Shown: positions 4,005-32,300 of the stretch, one piece after another | Numbering within the stretch: the first letter of the stretch is position 1 | Layout of the letters: each line of letters opens with the position of its first letter | Assembly: GCA_043228905.1 (NCBI GenBank) | Contig: JBHGNT010000129.1 | Coordinates: 1-64,000, forward strand | Source: Azolla caroliniana | Lineage: Eukaryota; Plantae; Polypodiophyta | Length of the DNA stretch: 64,000 nt | Direction of reading: 5' to 3' | Notes under the pieces: generated by a model | What the model was told of the DNA's origin: nothing | Databases searched by the model: none | The model's input: only the letters and a program-made list of their open reading frames with translations | Position numbers and translations under genes: made by a program

Positions 4005-5150
4005 GATGCAGAGCTACTGACGTCTGCGCCATGTCTTGCCAGAGCTTTTCATAATCTCTCTGGATGCCCCTACAATTTTCATGATTTACACATTGCTCCA
4101 ATTAGAGAAAACAAACACGGTGAATCGTTAAAAGGTATTCTGGAGATTTTTATGACTTGTTGTTCATGTCTTGGTTTTTTCAAAGTTGATGTAGTGTAAA
4201 ACTCATTGGTACATCAGAAGATGCGGGCCACTTCTTCTCTAGACAAAGGGGTTGTTGGCACAAATATAAAAAATCCATGCCCTTTGATAGACATTACTCT
4301 GCCATGAAAATTTGGGGAAATTCCCTAATGACATAGAATTTGGGCATGGAAGTCCATAATAGAGTGGCACGAATCGATTGGCTTGCAGGATATATATTGA
4401 GATGAAAATCCATGGTAATGTAGGAGAAAATAAGTTGTTACAAAAAATAAATCCAATCTGCCTCATTAGTGCAAGTTACATAAGACATAATGCATGTTAT
4501 CCTAGCACCCATCCTCAAATCACTTCAGTTATTTGTAACTAAGGACAGCCGTACTTGCCTTGACCAGCATTCATAAACATCTTCATGTTCTTTCATCTTG
4601 TTTTGAGTTGTTTTCGATTCTCAATCACAGGTAAAAATCTCTATGGTTTTGCGTGGGTAAAGCATTTTGCCATAATGGTTGGTAATCACCACATTTTTTG
4701 TCTTGGTTTGTAAGTGTTGTAGTCATATGCTATTTTGTTGTTATATGAGTGGTTTTCTTCATCTAACGCTCTTATTGTGTGATACCACTTTCTTCAAAAA
4801 CCATACAAATAATTAACATTGCCAGAAATACCATATTGAAATAACACTGATGATGAAACTGCATCTTGCACAACAAAAAGGCAATCATTAACGAACCCAT
4901 ATGAGATATATTGTAATCAAGGCAAAAACCTCATCAACACTCTCCTATACATCGCTGGCAAGCTTGATGCAGAGATTACCAAATACTCCCAGCCCAACTA
5001 GGCCACATAAAACAAGATAAATTTGTTTTTTCTTTCTAAATGAGTATTTAGATGTACCCTGCTTAAGGTCAAAATTGAATACAACAAAACAAAATAACAA
5101 CTTGAAGCATACAACATCATAGCAGTGGATGGAATTGAGGAAACCATATA

Positions 5151-22294: not shown

Positions 22295-24310
22295 CCATCA
22301 AATATGAAAATGTTCACATAAGCACATGTGCCACTTATTCTTGGAAGCCATCATTATGTGATTAGGACTTTAGTTATGCAAAATACGTGCTTATCCATTA
22401 TTGTGTCTTCGTCATTCTAATTGTCAAGTGGCAACCATTTGGACTATACACCAAACACACCAATGACATTGGATGACACTTATTAAGAATTCCAAACTAC
22501 TCCATGGGCCACATAGTCTCAAATACATTCACCTTCCACGCACATTGATCACACAGACAACAACAATTTGCCAAACCATGAATTTCGTTTTCAACTAAGT
22601 TCTTTTACACGTCAACGTCGACATCCACCTTAGACAACTCTCACTTTCACTTAGTGTTGTGTGGTTCATAAAAATATATTTCCTATCTCATGAATTAGTA
22701 GTGCAATATGTCTTGTGTTTGACATATTGGATAATGTCTCGTTGATAAAAGCAAGCACATTAGGATATTATCGAGATTAATAGATCAATGCAAGGGCCGT
22801 GGGCATGTAGTAAGGGGTTAATTGGTCCCATGTATGTTATGTATCGGTCACATAAGTTGGGTAAGGGGGTTCCATTCAAAAGCATGTGTGTATTGGATGT
22901 TAGAACTTAGGGTGAAAATCAATGTCAGATCTTTCTTGCACAAGCAGTGACTAGGGGCTTATATGACTAGGTCTTGACAATATCCTTCCAGAAACCTTAT
23001 GGATACCAAGGTTCATATTTGGTTGGTGGCTAGTGTCAAGACAACAATTGCATTTGACATTTGCATGGTAATCAAGCAATTGAGAGAGTAAAAACAATGT
23101 TTAATTTTAAACGCCCACCTTAAGCATTGGTCATACTAGTCCCAACACAATGTTGTTCTAAGTTCTAACCTTGCTACTTTTTATATAATCTCCATCACAC
23201 TATTCATTTTGAGATTTATGTTCATCCATAAACCTTGCATAATTTGTCATTAGCTCATACACGAAACTAAAAAAAATTTAAGTTGGACCATGTGTATGTG
23301 TGTGTATGTATGTATGTATGTATACACACACACACACACATGAGCATGCAATTCATTTTAGTTTTTTTATCTACAATTCATCTTCCACCTTTGAAAGTGA
23401 AATGCAAGTGATTCTTTCAACGAATATAAAAATGTTCACATAAGCAAGTGTGATGCTTTTTCTTGGAAGCCATGATTACGTGGTCTTGACTTCAATTGTG
23501 CAAAATATGTTCTTATCCATAATTGCCTCTTAATCTTGCAATTGTAAAGTGGAGCAATTAGGACTTCGCAACAAACACACAAACATTGGAAGTAACATTA
23601 AGAGCTAAAAACGACTTTGTGGGCCACAATTCTCCAATACATTCACCTTCCACCCACATTTATCACAACGACAATAACAACACACCAAACCATGAATTTC
23701 GTTTTCAACTAAGTTCTTTTACACATTGATGTCAACATCTAATTTAGCCTACTCTCACTTTCATTTATAGTGTTGTGGGGTTCCTAAAAATATAGTTTAT
23801 TATTCATGAGAAAGTAGTCCAATGAGTCCTCTATTTGAACATGTTGTTTAATGTCTACTAGGTAATAGCTAGCACATTAGTATATTGTCTAGATTATTAA
23901 GTCAAAGTATAGCCATGTATATGGTATGGCTCATATGTTTGTGTAGGTTGGCTAGGGTTCCATGCACAACCATGGAAATATATTGAATGTTAGGGTGTAA
24001 GTCAACGCCATATCTCTTCCATGTAAGCAACAAATAAGGCATTATAGGGTCAAGTTCTTCCTCCTTACACAATCCTTATAGATTACCAAGGTCGCTATTA
24101 GTGGTCAATGTCAAGAAAATAACTGTCTTTTTTATCTTTGCATGGTAATAGACTAATCAAGGAGAGTAAGCAACAAGTAGGGCATTGTAGGGCCAAGTTC
24201 CTCCTCCTTACACAATCCTTATAGATTACCAAGATCTCTATTAGTGGTCAATGTCAAGACAATAAGAGTCTCTTTTATCTTGGCATGGTAATAGACTAAT
24301 TAAGGAGAGT
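22295..24310. repeat. Diverged ~1.1-kb-period tandem duplication (~22295-23080 vs ~23420-24170) plus a ~145-bp terminal tandem copy
   Basis: Shared blocks such as aaatgttcacataagca and aaaccatgaatttcgttttcaactaagttcttttacac appear in both copies. ttcctcctccttacacaatccttatagattacc-like text repeats at ~24055 and ~24198. Confidence 0.8.
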
Positions 24311-25105: not shown

Positions 25106-25815
25106 TATTGTCAATTGAAAGTTCACCTTTTCGTATTTAGAGCTTGTATGTAAAATCCATGAACTATTCATACAAGTTTACAACATGTATGGTACTTACA
25201 TTGCAATTTGCCATGCATGATACATCTAGATTTGTTTTTTGGAATAATAATAAAAAACAAATTATTTCTTGGCCTTGCTAATTATTGTCAAATGAAATAC
25301 TTTTTTTCCAAAAAAAAAGTGAAATACTTTTATTTTCCAAATAATTAGGAATAACGAAATTGAGTCCAAACCTTACACTTTAAAGTTGAATACAATATTT
25401 TTTTTCTTCCTTTCATATCCAAAAAAATAAAGTAACATAATTTATCCATTTTTTTTGAAATACTACCAAAAACCAAAAGAAGGACATGAGTCAAATGCGA
25501 AGTTTTTTAGTAACAAATGCTTGTTTGGGCTCTCATTTTGTATGAGTAAGGGTTTCTAAAGTATTAAAACACGGTTCAATATTTTACTTGGGACTAAAAA
25601 ATAACACAAATGCTATTAAGTTTCCATTATTCCCTAAATGCCCACAATCTGGGAAAGTGAGAAGAAGGGTATGTTCCCAGTGTTGCCTTTTGACGGCCAA
25701 CATTGCCTGTCATGAGAACGGTATTCCAAAATTTTTGCCCGTCAAATTGACGGTTTACCAAAAAAAAAAGCCCTTCAAAAAGTAAATACATCGAATATTT
25801 GTACGAAACAATATA

Positions 25816-28056
25816 TTATACCCTTCTATCCTTTGCATCTTTCCAAATTTCATATACATGATCCCATTGTATCTCTTCAATGTGTGGCCCATTCAATGAG
25901 ACTCGCATTAAATCATCTAAATGCTCTATATTCAATAGATTTCTTTTCATCTCTTTGATGAGATTTTGCTTAGAAAACCCTCTCTCACACGAAACTGTGC
26001 TAGACGGAATAACCAAAGTAGCTTGCCATAATTTCATCAAATGAGGGAAACTATCTTGCCAATCCTTCATTTTGCAAAACATACGCCAAGCTTCATGCAT
26101 AGTATAGCCTTCACAATTTAAACGTAAAGTGTCAACAAACCTATAGAGTTCCATTTCACAAGCCTTTGCATCATGTAAAATTTGAGGACATGCATTGACA
26201 TCAACATTTGGCTGTAAGTGAGAAATCAAAATTCCCAACCATGTCTTTGCTTTACTATCCCTAATCACATCATCATCTGCGTAATGGCATGGGCTGAATA
26301 ATTTTGCTGCATTGAAGAGGCTTAAGTCAGGGAATCTTGCATTTAGTCCATCAATAACATTTTGCACATAATTTTGAGATAGTTTAATACAACTTTCAAG
26401 TGATCCATCTATAAATGGCCTCATTCCCTTAGATTTTGCAATATTGGGATTTGTATCATTTTGACTTGCTTTATCCATAGGAATTTGTTTGAAGTATAGT
26501 TCATGTCTATATGTAACGCCATCTTTATCCTCTATTTCCAAAAACCCAACTTTAGAGCATCTTAAGAACTTGGACAAATACATTGTTCCATCCGCAAATG
26601 TGTCATTTCTCAAGAAAGACCTTCGCAAATTAGAAATTGTAATATCAATTTCTGCACCAATTGAAGTTACATCCAAATTCTCTTTTTGAAGTTTCAAGCT
26701 CAAGATATTCATCAAATGCAACACATCAGCCATCATACAAAAGCAAAATTGCACACTATAGATACAAGCTTTATTATACCACTCGTTTAAGCTCTCTTTC
26801 TTCCAAATAGTAAGTATTGCAGGCATTATACTCACTAGTCTTTCCATGACTTGACCACGTGACAACCAACGAATATTATGAATTTGTAATGGTCTATGAG
26901 CATCCAATTGCATTTGTTCCAAGAGCTCTAAAATTTCATGTGTCCTTTTGGTACTATTGTTAGCCCATGCATATACCTTATTTGCAATTTTTTCTACAAG
27001 AATGAGCTCAGGGATATCTTTAGATACATCTGAAATAACCAATGCTTCTCTATGAGCAATACAATGTACACCAACCAAATTTGGGATATCATTTTTCATT
27101 AATGTTACTATTCCAATTTCACTACCAATCATTGATGACGCACCATCAGTTGCCAATCCAATCAACTTGTTCATGTTGAGGCATCGACCGCCTAATAGAT
27201 GCTTAACATGTTCATATATAGTTCTACCTTTACCATTGGGAATTTTCAGCAAACCCATATATTCAGTTTGCTTAGGCCCACAACCACCACATTGCAAGTA
27301 TGTAACATACATAATGAGATGCAACTCTAATCTATTGTCAGTACTTTCATCTAGCATCAAAGAGTAGTATGGGGAATTTATTAGGTTTGAGCTTTGAACT
27401 TCTAGAAGATATTTCCCGAAGGCAACCAAAAATTCATATCCCCCATATCAACTAGTATAAGATATATAATCATGTTGCTTAGGCATATTAGGCACCTCTA
27501 GTAGCATAGCTAAATCACATAATTCTTGGTATGTAGCAATAAACAAATCTTTTTTTGCAATAAAGTACATGAGTTTCATTGTTGTTATGACCTTATTTTT
27601 GTTAATATCATCCAATTGTGATACATGCTTTGGGATGGACATTGCTTTCCCTTCAACATCACATATCCACTTTGATGCACATAATTTATGACCACTTGAG
27701 TTAACATGGGTCAAAATTGCATCAAGTTGCAAAGTAATGCATCCAGAACCAAGACCCCAAGGCCCAAGACTAGCGTATTTCTCACACCATGCACATTTCA
27801 TTAATGTTTTGTCTCCTTGCATAATGCATCTTATCCATGGGAATTTATCCCTCCATGCTTCACGGAATTTTCTCTTAGGCTTTTCTTTAGTTATATTAGA
27901 GGAACAACTCTCTCGAGTTAAACTCTCTAAATCAGTCCCAAACATATCCATATCCTCATTTAAATCATTGTTTATATTTATGTCATTGGTATCGTTGGGT
28001 GGTTTCCATGCAAACATCGCACTAATGGTTCGTTGATTTTTTCTATTGGGAGCCAT
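25816..28056 (-). pseudogene. hAT (ZNF862/DUF4371-like) transposase with one in-frame stop at 27448-27450
   Basis: ORFs 27448-28101 and 25816-27429 are in the same frame. Motifs: N-terminal C2H2-type finger (CAWC...HVNSSGH), LMLDESTD, ATDGASSM, HCIAHRE, RWLS and CERGFS. Likely start MAPNRK at 28056 follows a 3' splice site. Confidence 0.92.
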
Positions 28057-28836
28057 AATTATTCTAAACAAGAAGAAATGGGTCATGTAAGAAAAGATCA
28101 TGCCATCAGTTCAAAACAATCACTAGCATCATTAAACCCATGCATATTAGTTCTGACCTATTGAGCAATGAGATTTTACATGAATATAATTCCCAAACTT
28201 TTGCCCTTAAAGAGGAGAGCAATACTAGTTTTGATGGACTAGTAAAAGAATTTGGTGGTATATCTAGTAAAAGCCATTGTAAATTTTCGTAGAGGGAAAT
28301 ATATAGGGTAAGTTGGACTTCGTCTAGATGCAGAATGCCAACCTAGATACACCACAACATAATGTTACTACGTAGCATGTTTTTCCAGTAAAACATGTAC
28401 GAGACAATGATGCCATAAATGCAAGGATAAGTCCAAAGATTAATTGGTTTGGTATTTAACACTATACAATAAAGTTAGATATGCAAGCCATATCCTATAG
28501 AGTTTTTGCTTTGGTCCTAGAGGAGTTCGCGACATGTTAACATGTTAACATCAACTGGCAACATGAACTAACATGATGAAACATGATTTTATTATTATTA
28601 ACTAGCCTCGCCGATGCATCCGCCACTCCATACACGATTCTATGTGCACATACGTATATGTGACACCTCGAAATATATGCATAGATATCTATCTATCAAC
28701 CTAACCTACACTTAGATGATGATGTATGGACATACACATATACATATATTATACAAGATGCATGTTGATGTATGTCTCGATGCATCAATGGGTGAGGACC
28801 TTGGCAATTTACTACTCCTCTGAGCTTCGATTGTAG

Positions 28837-29307
<471 letters not shown>

Positions 29308-32300
29308 GCTTCATATTTAGGGTTTGGACTTTCTATGATGGTGTAGGTTGCATGCATGAAATTAGAGTTTTTTGTGTCTGGTTTTTCTTGCGGACTAAAT
29401 GTATCCTGTTAGTTTTTCTAAATATTCAATTACTAGTGTTCTTTGCATTCCAGAGAGAGAGAGAGAGAGAGCTACCTTAGATGGGTGAGTAGGACTGTTG
29501 TAGGTGTTGCTGAAAGCCTAAATCTATGAGTAGACTGTAGCAGGAAACGAGCAACAAGCTTCGAGTAGGGATAGTTATTAGTGAGCATTGAGTTGCGAGC
29601 TTCCAGCAAGGTGCAGGGCCGAGGGAGCAACGAAGAAACAGGGGAAAAGGGGAGAAATGGGGGGAGATGGGGGAAAATGGGGGAAAGGGGGGGAAAGGGA
29701 AAGGAAGGTTTTAGATGGGGAAACGGGGCGGGGGAATTGGGAAGAAAAGATTCATAATTTAGAGTCTAGACTCTATTAGTTTTTTTACCTTTTCGTTACA
29801 CACATATGTGAGTCTTTCAAATTCATACACTCCCAATGCAACTTGAACAATTTGTTCCTACTACCTAGGACTATAATACTATTGTATTGGTCTTAGTAAA
29901 ATTTGACGGTATTAGGAAATTTTAAGCCTTCATTTTTATGTTTTCATAAAACATATGCCCGTCAAGATTGACGGTTTCATTTTTAAATTAACCTTCATAT
30001 ACGGTTAAATTTGCCAAAAACGTTCAAAACGGCCGTCAAAAGGCAACACTGTATGTTCCTATGAGTAGAGTATAACTATCAAACATATATAACCATGGAA
30101 ACGAGGGATGACTTGACCATGTGGTCACTCAAATATGTATGTACCACAATATGTAAGTAATGGAGAGAGAGAGAAATGATTAACCAAAGGTATTTCAGTA
30201 ATATCCAAATGTAATTAAATAAAATAAAATCATTGCCAAGTGTAGGAGTTTTTCTTATCCCAATACAATTATATTATGAATACACATTTGTGTTTGACAT
30301 GATGAGGTAATAATCCAATGTTTATAGCAATGAATATATTCCACTTTCATTTCTTTCTCAAAGTGGTACTCATGTTTCGTGTTCATAAAAACAAAATGCA
30401 TCACTTGCTTTTTCATCAAATGCCGAACTTATTGCTATGATTAGAAATGCATGTTTCAACATGGAATGTATCAAGATGTGAAGAATCCCACACTTAACAA
30501 TGGTATGACTAAGGGGTATGGTTAATGGACTTACAATGCAAGGATATAAATGTTCATGGGCATGCCATGGAAAAAAACTCTATTATGATTTAGAAAAAGC
30601 AAATGATTCATGGAAAGGAAAGCACACACATTTCATAGCTCATGATTTTTCATCAAAAGCTCAACATCATGGAAAAAAGCCCATCTCTCTATTTAAGAAG
30701 ATCACCAAATAAATACACATGGACAATGGCGGAGGATTGCTAGATAAAGTTATAATCTTTTTCTTAAAACTATAGCCCACAAAAGAGAACAAGAAGAATT
30801 TTTACATGGAGCAGAGAGCTAAGTACCTTTTTTACATGTTAAAGTGTGATATGGTCTTGGCCATTGGAAAGTGATGCCTAGACACTCATTGATCATTTCA
30901 AAGGACTTGGTATGTACATTCCTCAATCCAATAGAACTCCTTAAGCCACCCATAAAGGACCAGACTTTGTTGACGAATATATCAATGAAACAATAATAAT
31001 TTTATACACATACCCTAAAAAGTCTTGAAGTTGTTTCTAAATAGTCAATTGCGACCTCTCCATAGCTTCATATGTGGAGATGCAAGCTTTCAACACAACG
31101 TGGGCAAGTATCAAACTTTGTTTTACCTCAAATTGCCATTTGAGTGGGTTCAAAGACAATTGGTACTCACCCTATCTCTATGTCTCCTTATTAGGACGAA
31201 GAGGTTCATGCCCATACCAAATTCCAATGCATATCACCAAGTTGTCTTGTTGCATCTTATCAACAAAACTTGTTCAATTGTTTGAATCACTTGATTGATA
31301 ACGACTTTTCTTCAATTTGATTTTAAAGTTATTGTTAGAAAAGGGAAGAATCAAGTCTAAAACCACTTCTCATGTTGGCAAGTGGTGGTGTTGGCATAAA
31401 AGGTCGACTCCTTCCACTTTGTAACTGTAGTGTGAACACGTCCTCTAGTTAGGGCTTGAGTATATAAGCTCAACCCTAACATTGTAACGAAATCTTCTTC
31501 TTGAGTCTTGTAGTAGACAGAGAGTTACAAAATAACAAAGAACTTCCATTGAAGCTCGAACTGTGTGTGTGCTTCTATTTCATCACCTGTCATATTTTTT
31601 GTGTTGTTTGTTGAGCATAATACGACATTTCCTCATACACGCTTCCGCATATATGTTCACATACACCCCAACAAGTGGTATCAGAGCGACATGCTGTTCA
31701 GCGACAACAAACAACAGAAAAATCTGAAAGAAAAGCCTAGGTCAGTAAAATCTCACTTTCAAAAGAGAATGGCTTCAACATCCGGTACAGGGGTTGAAAT
31801 CAGAAAGTTCAATGACAAAAATTTTTCCCTATGGAAGGAGATGATGCAGGATGTACTTATCATCCGACGTAAAATCGAGGCAATCGATGACAACAATACG
31901 ACGCTCACTGGACGAAATAGCCAGGTCGACCATTCGTATGCATTTGGCCGAAAATGTCTATTTCAGCATGGCAAAAGAGACGACAACGTTCTCACTATGG
32001 GAGAAATTACAGGCTATATACGAGAAAAAATCCTCCTCATTAAAACTCATATTGTTTCGACAACTGTTCAATATGAAGATGAGAGAGTCGGACCTAGTGA
32101 CCTCCCACATCAACACCTTCAGTTAGGTGTTGTCTAAACTCTCCTCCCAAGGGATCAACTTCAAAGAAGAAGTTAAGGCTCTTGCCCTCCTTTCGAGCTT
32201 GTCGACGAGTTGGGAGGTATTCTGCTTGACATTTGCCAATAGTTATCCAAATCTGAACTTAGATGAGAAATAGGACAAGTCCTCACTGAGGACATTCGGC

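Follow-up and report, generated by a model that had tools for sequence, protein, structure and literature searches.

Spliced host mRNA copies taken up in succession by a hAT transposon family of Azolla caroliniana

Background

The subject of this study is a transposon in a 64,000-nucleotide stretch of DNA from Azolla caroliniana (Polypodiophyta; assembly GCA_043228905.1, contig JBHGNT010000129.1, positions 1 to 64,000 of the forward strand), hereafter called the window. A hAT element occupies positions 25678-30051, its minus strand coding for the transposase and its plus strand carrying a ubiquitin-RPS27a cargo. An original prediction, made from the sequence of the window, had read the cargo as a complete gene in a near-autonomous element; it missed that the cargo is a retrocopy and that it is one of a series of cargos at one site. 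On balance, we favour the view that a spliced copy of the RPS27a mRNA entered an ancestor of the element at a (GA)n tract of the predicted 5' intron of the transposase transcript and was spread to 12 sites, that this was one of several captures in the family, and that the route was likely (TC)n-primed reverse transcription at the mRNA 3' end during gap repair. How transposons with terminal inverted repeats (TIRs) acquire unlinked host genes is an open question, to which this family brings a succession of captures, ordered in time, at a single site for which parents, junctions and intact transposases are available.

Results

A hAT element with a spliced copy of the RPS27a mRNA

By its TIRs, its target-site duplication (TSD) and its transposase, the element is a hAT transposon. 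The perfect 21-bp TIRs and the perfect 8-bp TSD around transposase and cargo had been recognized correctly in the original prediction (Table 1), and the genome searched, a 523-Mb plant assembly, contains the exact TIR 46 times and its reversed control 0 times, so that the TIR is not a product of chance. The transposase contains PF05699 (hAT dimerisation; E 9e-6, 25.8 bits against a cut-off of 21.4) and zf-C17orf113, and the best Atlas match, at 0.98, carries both PF05699 and DUF4371. The D, D, CxxH, W and E motifs, which we take to have catalytic roles, are present in the transposase of L078, an intact sister copy. The window copy is not autonomous because of the in-frame stop at transposase codon 203, and the idea of a near-autonomous element has to be given up for it. 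Two full-length sisters with the same cargo (L061 and L062) have indels in their transposase, and the intact transposases, 11 in the 32 rows compared, all belong to carriers of other cargos (3 of RPS7, 8 of a mosaic, 0 of RPS27a).

The uninterrupted 154-aa open reading frame (ORF) on the plus strand, with both domains present, stands as first described. It differs from the host protein by five amino-acid changes (A28V, I30F, P37A, D58N and Q151K), four of them in ubiquitin, and it belongs not to a complete gene but to a spliced copy that lacks the intron and the promoter. The closest host gene (G000:C8:3210141-3211562, locus L063) is matched in two pieces, 92-98% alike, and has a GT-AG intron of 790 bp in codon 8, which is removed to the exact base in the cargo; poly(A) reads of a relative join the same exons. 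The parental locus and the breakpoints, whose search had been proposed with the original prediction, could both be found, the copy spanning L063:5142-6563. Because the relative's reads begin at 5109, 33 nt upstream of the cargo start, the cargo contains the greater part of the transcript and nothing of the promoter; at the other end, read depth falls from 558 to 10 over L063 6462-6603, a limit blurred by the relative's divergence. Poly(A) and a TSD of the cargo's own, the hallmarks of L1-type processed pseudogenes, are lacking, as had been noted from the start: the 3' untranslated region (UTR) passes straight into an (AG)10 tract, and the 5' junction is without duplication. With its exact intron loss, its transcript-limited extent and no promoter, the cargo is a processed retrocopy, and genomic capture of the whole RPS27a gene is ruled out by the absent intron.

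Another spliced RPS27a piece, truncated, lies at the border of a long terminal repeat (LTR; L064:5442-5787, G000:C4:15117441-15117786), with the same 18 nt on both sides, the pattern expected of a template switch in an LTR element. Origin of the cargo from this piece was ruled out: the piece stops near codon 108, and 19 private differences stand against 4 shared ones.

Table 1. Features of the hAT element and its cargo, with the loci of a second TIR family (window positions unless a locus is named; CDS, coding sequence)
Feature	Position	Strand	Remarks
Left TSD, 8 bp	25670..25677		TATGTTCC; same copy at right end
Left TIR, 21 bp	25678..25698	+	perfect; sequence match with right end
hAT transposase CDS, DUF4371/ZNF862-like type	25816..28056	-	746 codons, one nonsense codon; ATG at 28056
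Premature in-frame stop	27448..27450	-	transposase codon 203 (Arg in intact sister L078)
Predicted 5'-UTR intron of transposase transcript	28064..29475	-	holds variable cargo; splice signals and conservation
Relic of earlier capture	28208..28266	+	host OTU-type deubiquitinase-like coding piece; whole in older sisters L096, L098, L100
Relic of second earlier capture	28271..28303	+	piece of segment G000:C11:20488060-20488981; whole in L099
Low-copy host-derived filler	28324..28818	+	two blocks; 85% to G000:C3:22455200-22455868
Spliced ubiquitin-RPS27a mRNA copy	28822..29452	+	5' UTR 21 nt, CDS, 3' UTR ~145 nt; exon junction 28864/28865
Ubiquitin-RPS27a ORF	28843..29307	+	154 aa; ubiquitin and Ribosomal_S27 domains
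(AG)10 tract	29452..29471	+	abuts cargo 3' end; (TC)n just inside splice donor on transposase strand
Predicted non-coding first exon and promoter-side region	29476..29760	-	putative exon; long G/A-rich tract ~29641-29750
Right TIR, 21 bp	30031..30051	-	perfect; sequence match with left end
Right TSD, 8 bp	30052..30059		TATGTTCC; identical to left
Second TIR family	L193:1786-7966, L224, L227, L229-L232, L256-L275

Amplification of the cargo by transposition

The RPS27a segment has 12 near-identical matches in the genome (98-100%; mean divergence among the copies 1.5%). Three carriers are full-length (the window copy, L061 and L062); in L067 the element runs off the end of a contig, and the remaining eight have lost internal sequence but kept the cargo; 11 of the 12 have both TIRs, each with an 8-bp TSD of its own (one with a mismatch) and separate flanks. 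Because it is present in 12 copies at different sites, the cargo travelled with the element by transposition, and its mobilisation, as originally proposed, holds; a single copy with an insertion footprint of its own, named there as the counter-case, is not what the genome contains. Chance, or a single later insertion into a resident element, is ruled out by the 12 sites. As in Pack-TYPE transposons, host sequence lies within TIRs at several sites (12); a genomic piece with its introns kept, the other mark of that class, is found only at L104/L106 and not for RPS27a, RPS7, RPL21 or Alba. The cargo is a transposed retrocopy under the favoured reading and under each of the three alternatives weighed below. 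Pairs with the same TSD or the same flank (L081/L085 and L123/L124) are segmental or haplotype duplicates in the assembly.

The predicted 5' intron and its successive cargos

A donor-like GT at 29475 and an acceptor-like AG at 28065-28064 (minus strand) bound the predicted intron of the transposase transcript. Its placement is predicted from conservation, the GT being kept in 40 of 41 donor motifs and the AG in 30 of 32 acceptor matches. For a 20-nt motif at the predicted donor the genome has 41 matches, against 3 for the reversed control; all 41 loci were examined, and every one of them (41/41) holds foreign DNA between the predicted acceptor and donor. The cargo is RPS27a in 12 copies, a three-piece mosaic in 9, RPS7 in 7 (two of which share a TSD and represent one insertion), RPL21 in 4, an OTU-like coding piece plus 3' UTR in 4, a C1 piece in 2, an unspliced genomic piece joined to the RPL21 3' UTR in 2, and Alba in 1, the last occurring also in two copies that lack the donor motif (L110 and L114). 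RPS7 and Alba were identified by Pfam matches, and the names RPL21, OTU-like and Fcf1-like are our presumed assignments from the translations. No cargo-free sister was seen among the 41 motif-bearing copies, the motif-less degraded copies (L108-L115, L125-L135) being covered by BLAST only and eight of these loci (L127-L134) matching only a 130-bp repeat.

A host parent was located for each kind of hAT cargo. Loss of GT-AG introns is exact in RPS27a (1/1, 790 bp), RPL21 (1/1) and RPS7 (4/4), and for Alba three junctions were read exactly and four introns are skipped in L110; the parent of the OTU-like cargo is intron-less in the matched part. Every mRNA-type cargo is inserted on the plus strand and runs antisense to the transposase.

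The intron of the window is a palimpsest of successive captures, in which two relics and a filler accompany the RPS27a copy (Table 1). In a transposase tree of 30 rows (L107 and L126 excluded as too short; midpoint root, bootstrap not settled), the OTU-like carriers are basal, followed by the RPL21 carriers and then by the RPS27a carriers as sister to RPS7 plus mosaic. A strict order with the newest cargo at the donor fits the hAT family (OTU-like, then the C11 segment, then RPL21) and was rejected as a rule, as a second TIR family, described below, has RPS8-A upstream of an older P-protein copy. In L104 and L106 an intron-keeping genomic piece of an Fcf1/PIN-like gene is joined, inside the hAT intron, to the last 92 nt of the RPL21 3' UTR. 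Runs of two related organisms (X1 and X4) contain the same hAT, with transposase and both ends at ~90-96% in the longer pieces, and next to nothing over window positions 28318-28620.

Junctions at (GA)n tracts

The RPS27a, RPL21, Alba and OTU-like cargos and two unassigned pieces of the hAT family all abut a (GA)n tract directly, in most cases with one to a few A's in between. Alba (L105) retains 3 extra A's, and the RPS8-B copy, found in the second TIR family, ~7. Taking the spliced events of the whole study together, 7 of 11 end directly at sense (GA)n, namely RPS27a, RPL21, Alba, a free RPS7, a P-protein, RPS8-A and RPL30 (the 3' UTR of the last being unaligned), and 0 of 11 at (TC)n, against a background rate of 0.24% for (GA)5 after a random point. 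An RPS8 fragment (L238), not shown to be spliced, is excluded from the 11.

In the hAT family, RPS7 replaced the middle of RPL21, with microhomologies of 9 nt (5' junction) and 6 nt (3' junction). The RPS7 copy of the hAT and the free one in L123 are independent and stop at the same 3' UTR base; derivation of the former from the latter was ruled out by 22 and 12 private against 5 shared differences, L123 being ~97% alike to the host. The free retrocopy (L123:4291-5003, one locus assembled twice together with L124) runs into (GA)n, lies in an apparent intron and has a short tandem duplication at its 5' junction. A free RPL30 retrocopy ending at (GA)n occupies L175:1445-1975.

A search without regard to transposons and a second TIR family

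Four Pfam families, all of them ribosomal, were searched without regard to transposons. The searches gave spliced copies of RPS12, RPL30 (just 82-88% alike to its parent), an acidic P-protein and two RPS8 paralogues; the KOW family gave 0 retrocopies among 7 matches. Four of these five events (RPS12, the P-protein, RPS8-A and RPS8-B) lie inside a second TIR family, at (GA)n before a shared flank. This family has ~14-bp TIRs starting CCCGGGGG and 8-bp TSDs, and no transposase was seen in the copies examined, an autonomous partner not having been sought. In L229, copies of RPS8-A and the P-protein are stacked with (GA)n between them. Twenty further copies, sampled in list order from 58 right-end motif matches (8 kb each), hold the P-protein in 3 cases, a TIC20-like piece in 4, a glycine-rich RNA-binding-like piece in 3 and another piece in 1, the shared flank not being shown in 9. 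The TIC20-like and glycine-rich pieces, so named by our own presumption, are candidates for spliced cargo, and the parent of the glycine-rich one was not located among matches dominated by transposon copies. With 524 first-look candidates for one cargo, the family has at least several hundred copies. (GA/TC) tracts of at least 6 units number 12 in the 64-kb window against 13 in 141 kb of host loci, which extrapolates roughly to 50,000-100,000 tracts genome-wide, so that the second family still accounts for a small share.

The regular presence of cargo might also be a matter of selection. Captures would then be rare accidents, carriers of essential host sequence would be favoured, either as silencing them would harm the host gene or as the cargo blunts silencing, and cargo-free lineages would die out. 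Such selection would also account for the enrichment in TIR elements, and it is in line with the lack of a cargo-free element among the 41, with cargos that are mostly ribosomal-protein mRNAs and with cargo in the youngest, intact subfamilies. We consider it improbable all the same: ribosomal mRNAs are the commonest source of retrocopies in any case, and ribosomal families were all that the blind searches covered; in the subfamily richest in intact transposases (8 copies) the cargo is a mosaic with no whole ORF, the transposase is not intact in any of the three full-length RPS27a copies, and cargo has been overwritten repeatedly.

A LINE in the same tract

A long interspersed element (LINE) has inserted into the tract of the hAT intron at least twice, in L100 (L100:1300-6000) and in L110. 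Its 3' end has 1281 genome matches. In 30 sampled loci its tail is (CTAT)n or (CT)n, and the 3' end is followed by (CT)3+ in 13 against a background of 3%, by (TC)5+ in 6 and by (GA)5+ in 0; within 1.25 Mb of examined loci, no LINE ends at sense (GA)n. The LINE favours the same tracts in the orientation opposite to the mRNA cargos, as base-pair priming might bring about if a (GA)n end pairs with the LINE tail and a (TC)n end with poly(A).

It is therefore conceivable that a microsatellite-favouring LINE retroposes mRNAs in trans into any (GA)n by target-primed reverse transcription, and that transposition only multiplies them. An element with endonuclease and reverse transcriptase does lie between (GA)n tracts in L100, its kind often stands before (CT)n, ends at (GA)n are found as well in retrocopies that belong to neither TIR family, and several cargos lie between two (GA)n tracts, the pattern expected of a duplicated target; for RTE elements, tail-to-target pairing has been proposed in the accessible part of one account (PMC6007223). 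The orientation of the LINE copies, their absence at sense (GA)n in both the 30 loci and the 1.25 Mb, and three facts that such a LINE leaves unexplained, namely the four of five blind events in one TIR family, the replacement through two microhomologies and the unspliced filler, make this explanation unlikely in our view, though by no means negligible.

Decay of the cargos and their source

A full RPS27a ORF is left in 4 of the 12 copies, and the other 8 have stops, frameshifts or no ATG. Among the copies of the other cargos, synonymous to non-synonymous changes are 3:18 in RPS7, 9:22 in RPL21 and 20:63 in OTU-like (summed over non-independent copies). Cargos change close to neutrally after capture and then decay, and selection on the cargo ORF was rejected in view of the broken ORFs and of the 12:22 ratio among distinct RPS27a alleles. 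The suggestion in the original prediction that the cargo rides along harmlessly fits this decay, and the cargo is most likely a passenger without function.

Compared with the assembled host genes, the counts are 20:1 in RPS27a (majority state), 10:5 in RPS7, 10:6 in RPL21 and 18:3 in OTU-like, and this difference between host and cargo is far above the transposase distance between subfamilies (pS 0.04). The shared synonymous excess appears to mark a working source gene already diverged from the assembled one, because the same excess occurs in cargos without a start codon; the source may be another haplotype, a lost duplicate or a related species. At no fewer than ten of the sites listed, the relative's reads carry the cargo base and not the host base. 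A source in another haplotype or a related species would date the invasion through hybridisation.

The 20:1 ratio, together with the four whole ORFs, could alternatively suggest a functional retrogene under purifying selection, serving as an extra source of ubiquitin and RPS27a. This is hardly credible: the same excess is seen in cargos that cannot be translated whole, the RPS7 without its first five codons and the 5'-truncated OTU-like piece; two thirds of the RPS27a copies (8/12) are broken, ubiquitin carries four changes in the window copy, the host promoter was not taken up, and purifying selection after capture, by which a functional retrogene is recognized, was not found.

Discussion

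A proposed route of capture by reverse transcription at (GA)n

The sequences show the spliced origin of the cargos, their amplification by transposition, the repeated capture at one site, the single orientation and the decay after capture. Under the reading that we favour, excision would leave a gap, which is refilled from another copy, and synthesis would stall at the repeat and free a strand ending in (TC)n. As no other strand could base-pair with the beginning of a poly(A) tail, the mRNA would be copied from its 3' end, and the copy would be tail-less and always antisense to the transposase. The new strand would rejoin at (GA)n or at a short microhomology, by which older cargo may be deleted. 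Such an insert would come at low cost to the element, because it is antisense within the predicted intron and would be spliced out. The reverse transcriptase might be that of the abundant LINE, or a repair polymerase would serve. The microhomology replacement of RPL21 by RPS7 and the unspliced genomic piece in the same intron are as expected of gap repair.

A number of observations weigh against this reading. Four of the 11 spliced events do not end at (GA)n (the hAT RPS7, RPS12, RPS8-B and the LTR-borne RPS27a piece L064), and excision is not required, because the free RPS7 (L123) and RPL30 (L175) copies, outside both TIR families, end at (GA)n as well. Conservation agrees with the original placement of the cargo in a 5'-UTR intron of the transposase, but no read joining 29476 to 28063 was listed in the runs used, which come from relatives and hold almost no transposase reads in the poly(A) run; these reads gave no poly(A) site either. 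The enrichment in TIR elements rests on five events, and the second family exceeds its 58 motif matches, amplified copies being easier to find. The full LINE (RVT_1 plus endonuclease) in the (GA)n tract of L100 means that LINE machinery visits the tract. Finally, the distinct RPS27a alleles are slightly more synonymous than neutral (12:22; p=0.055 against 21% expected), the cargo differs by 20:1 from the host although its copies differ by 1.5%, and the true source allele was not found.

A broader proposition, which we put forward tentatively and with less confidence than the favoured reading, is that (GA)n tracts in TIR transposons act as standing mRNA traps, the gaps left by transposition being repaired by (TC)n-primed reverse transcription, and that retrocopies in the genome are mainly produced and carried by TIR elements, which stack and replace whole mRNAs at one site in a fixed orientation, rather than by random insertion through LINEs. 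DNA transposons would then have a separate, RNA-based route of gene capture, and the cargos would record the lineage where each subfamily captured them. Capture should stop or flip once the (GA)n is removed or flipped or reverse transcription is blocked. The case suggests that RNA-templated repair takes place naturally at microsatellites in a plant, and it carries a warning for annotation, many ribosomal-protein "genes" in this genome being transposon cargo.

Relation to known systems

Capture of a spliced transcript by a hAT element is already known: histone H3 was taken up by a hAT in Pseudocercospora fijiensis and other Dothideomycetes, according to the accessible text of Dhillon et al. 2019 (PMC6710886). 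A whole housekeeping ORF in a hAT, called unusual in the original prediction, has in this respect a precedent, while the Azolla case is more general than first seen. The two share TIRs, an 8-bp TSD and an intron-less housekeeping copy that was amplified and then inactivated. The fungal element, as described there, has one cargo, whereas the Azolla hAT, in a land plant, took up at least four spliced cargos, plus relics, one after the other and always the same way round, at a single (GA)n of a single predicted intron, and a second TIR family resembles it; the same text names no microsatellite site or priming rule.

For Pack-TIRs, Pack-MULEs and Pack-CACTAs, gap filling with microhomology and template switch at internal fragile sites have been put forward (Tan et al. 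2021, PMC8277862; PMC13317346). Host sequence between TIRs and microhomology at junctions are common to them and to the Azolla family. The sections available of both sources describe genomic DNA captures, mostly of fragments and by non-autonomous elements, while in Azolla spliced mRNA, in many cases almost complete, is the main template and the transposase is intact in 11 of the copies with cargo. In mouse cells, repair of Cas9 double-strand breaks mediated by reverse transcription products was seen to capture spliced mRNA, genomic DNA and retroelements (Ono et al. 2015, PMC4516963); copies of spliced mRNA are captured there as in the Azolla hAT, and the portion at hand describes no microsatellite priming, strand rule or amplification. 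For RTE-type LINEs, pairing of the RNA 3' end with a simple-repeat target was proposed to start reverse transcription (Nishiyama and Ohshima 2018, PMC6007223); in the part available, that case concerns LINE and SINE (short interspersed element) RNAs with repeat tails of their own and TSDs, unlike the Azolla cargos, which are host mRNAs and opposite in orientation to the local LINE. Our literature search, with subscription papers and supplements outside its scope, found no paper on repeated, oriented mRNA capture at a microsatellite inside TIR elements; a 2026 review, in its accessible part, holds that a further, undiscovered mechanism of TIR gene capture may exist (PMC13317346).

Neighbouring features of the window

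Directly to the right of the hAT element, the broken start of a Copia-like gag frame lies at 31691-32137, and to its left a tandem pair of 143 bp lies at 24023-24308.

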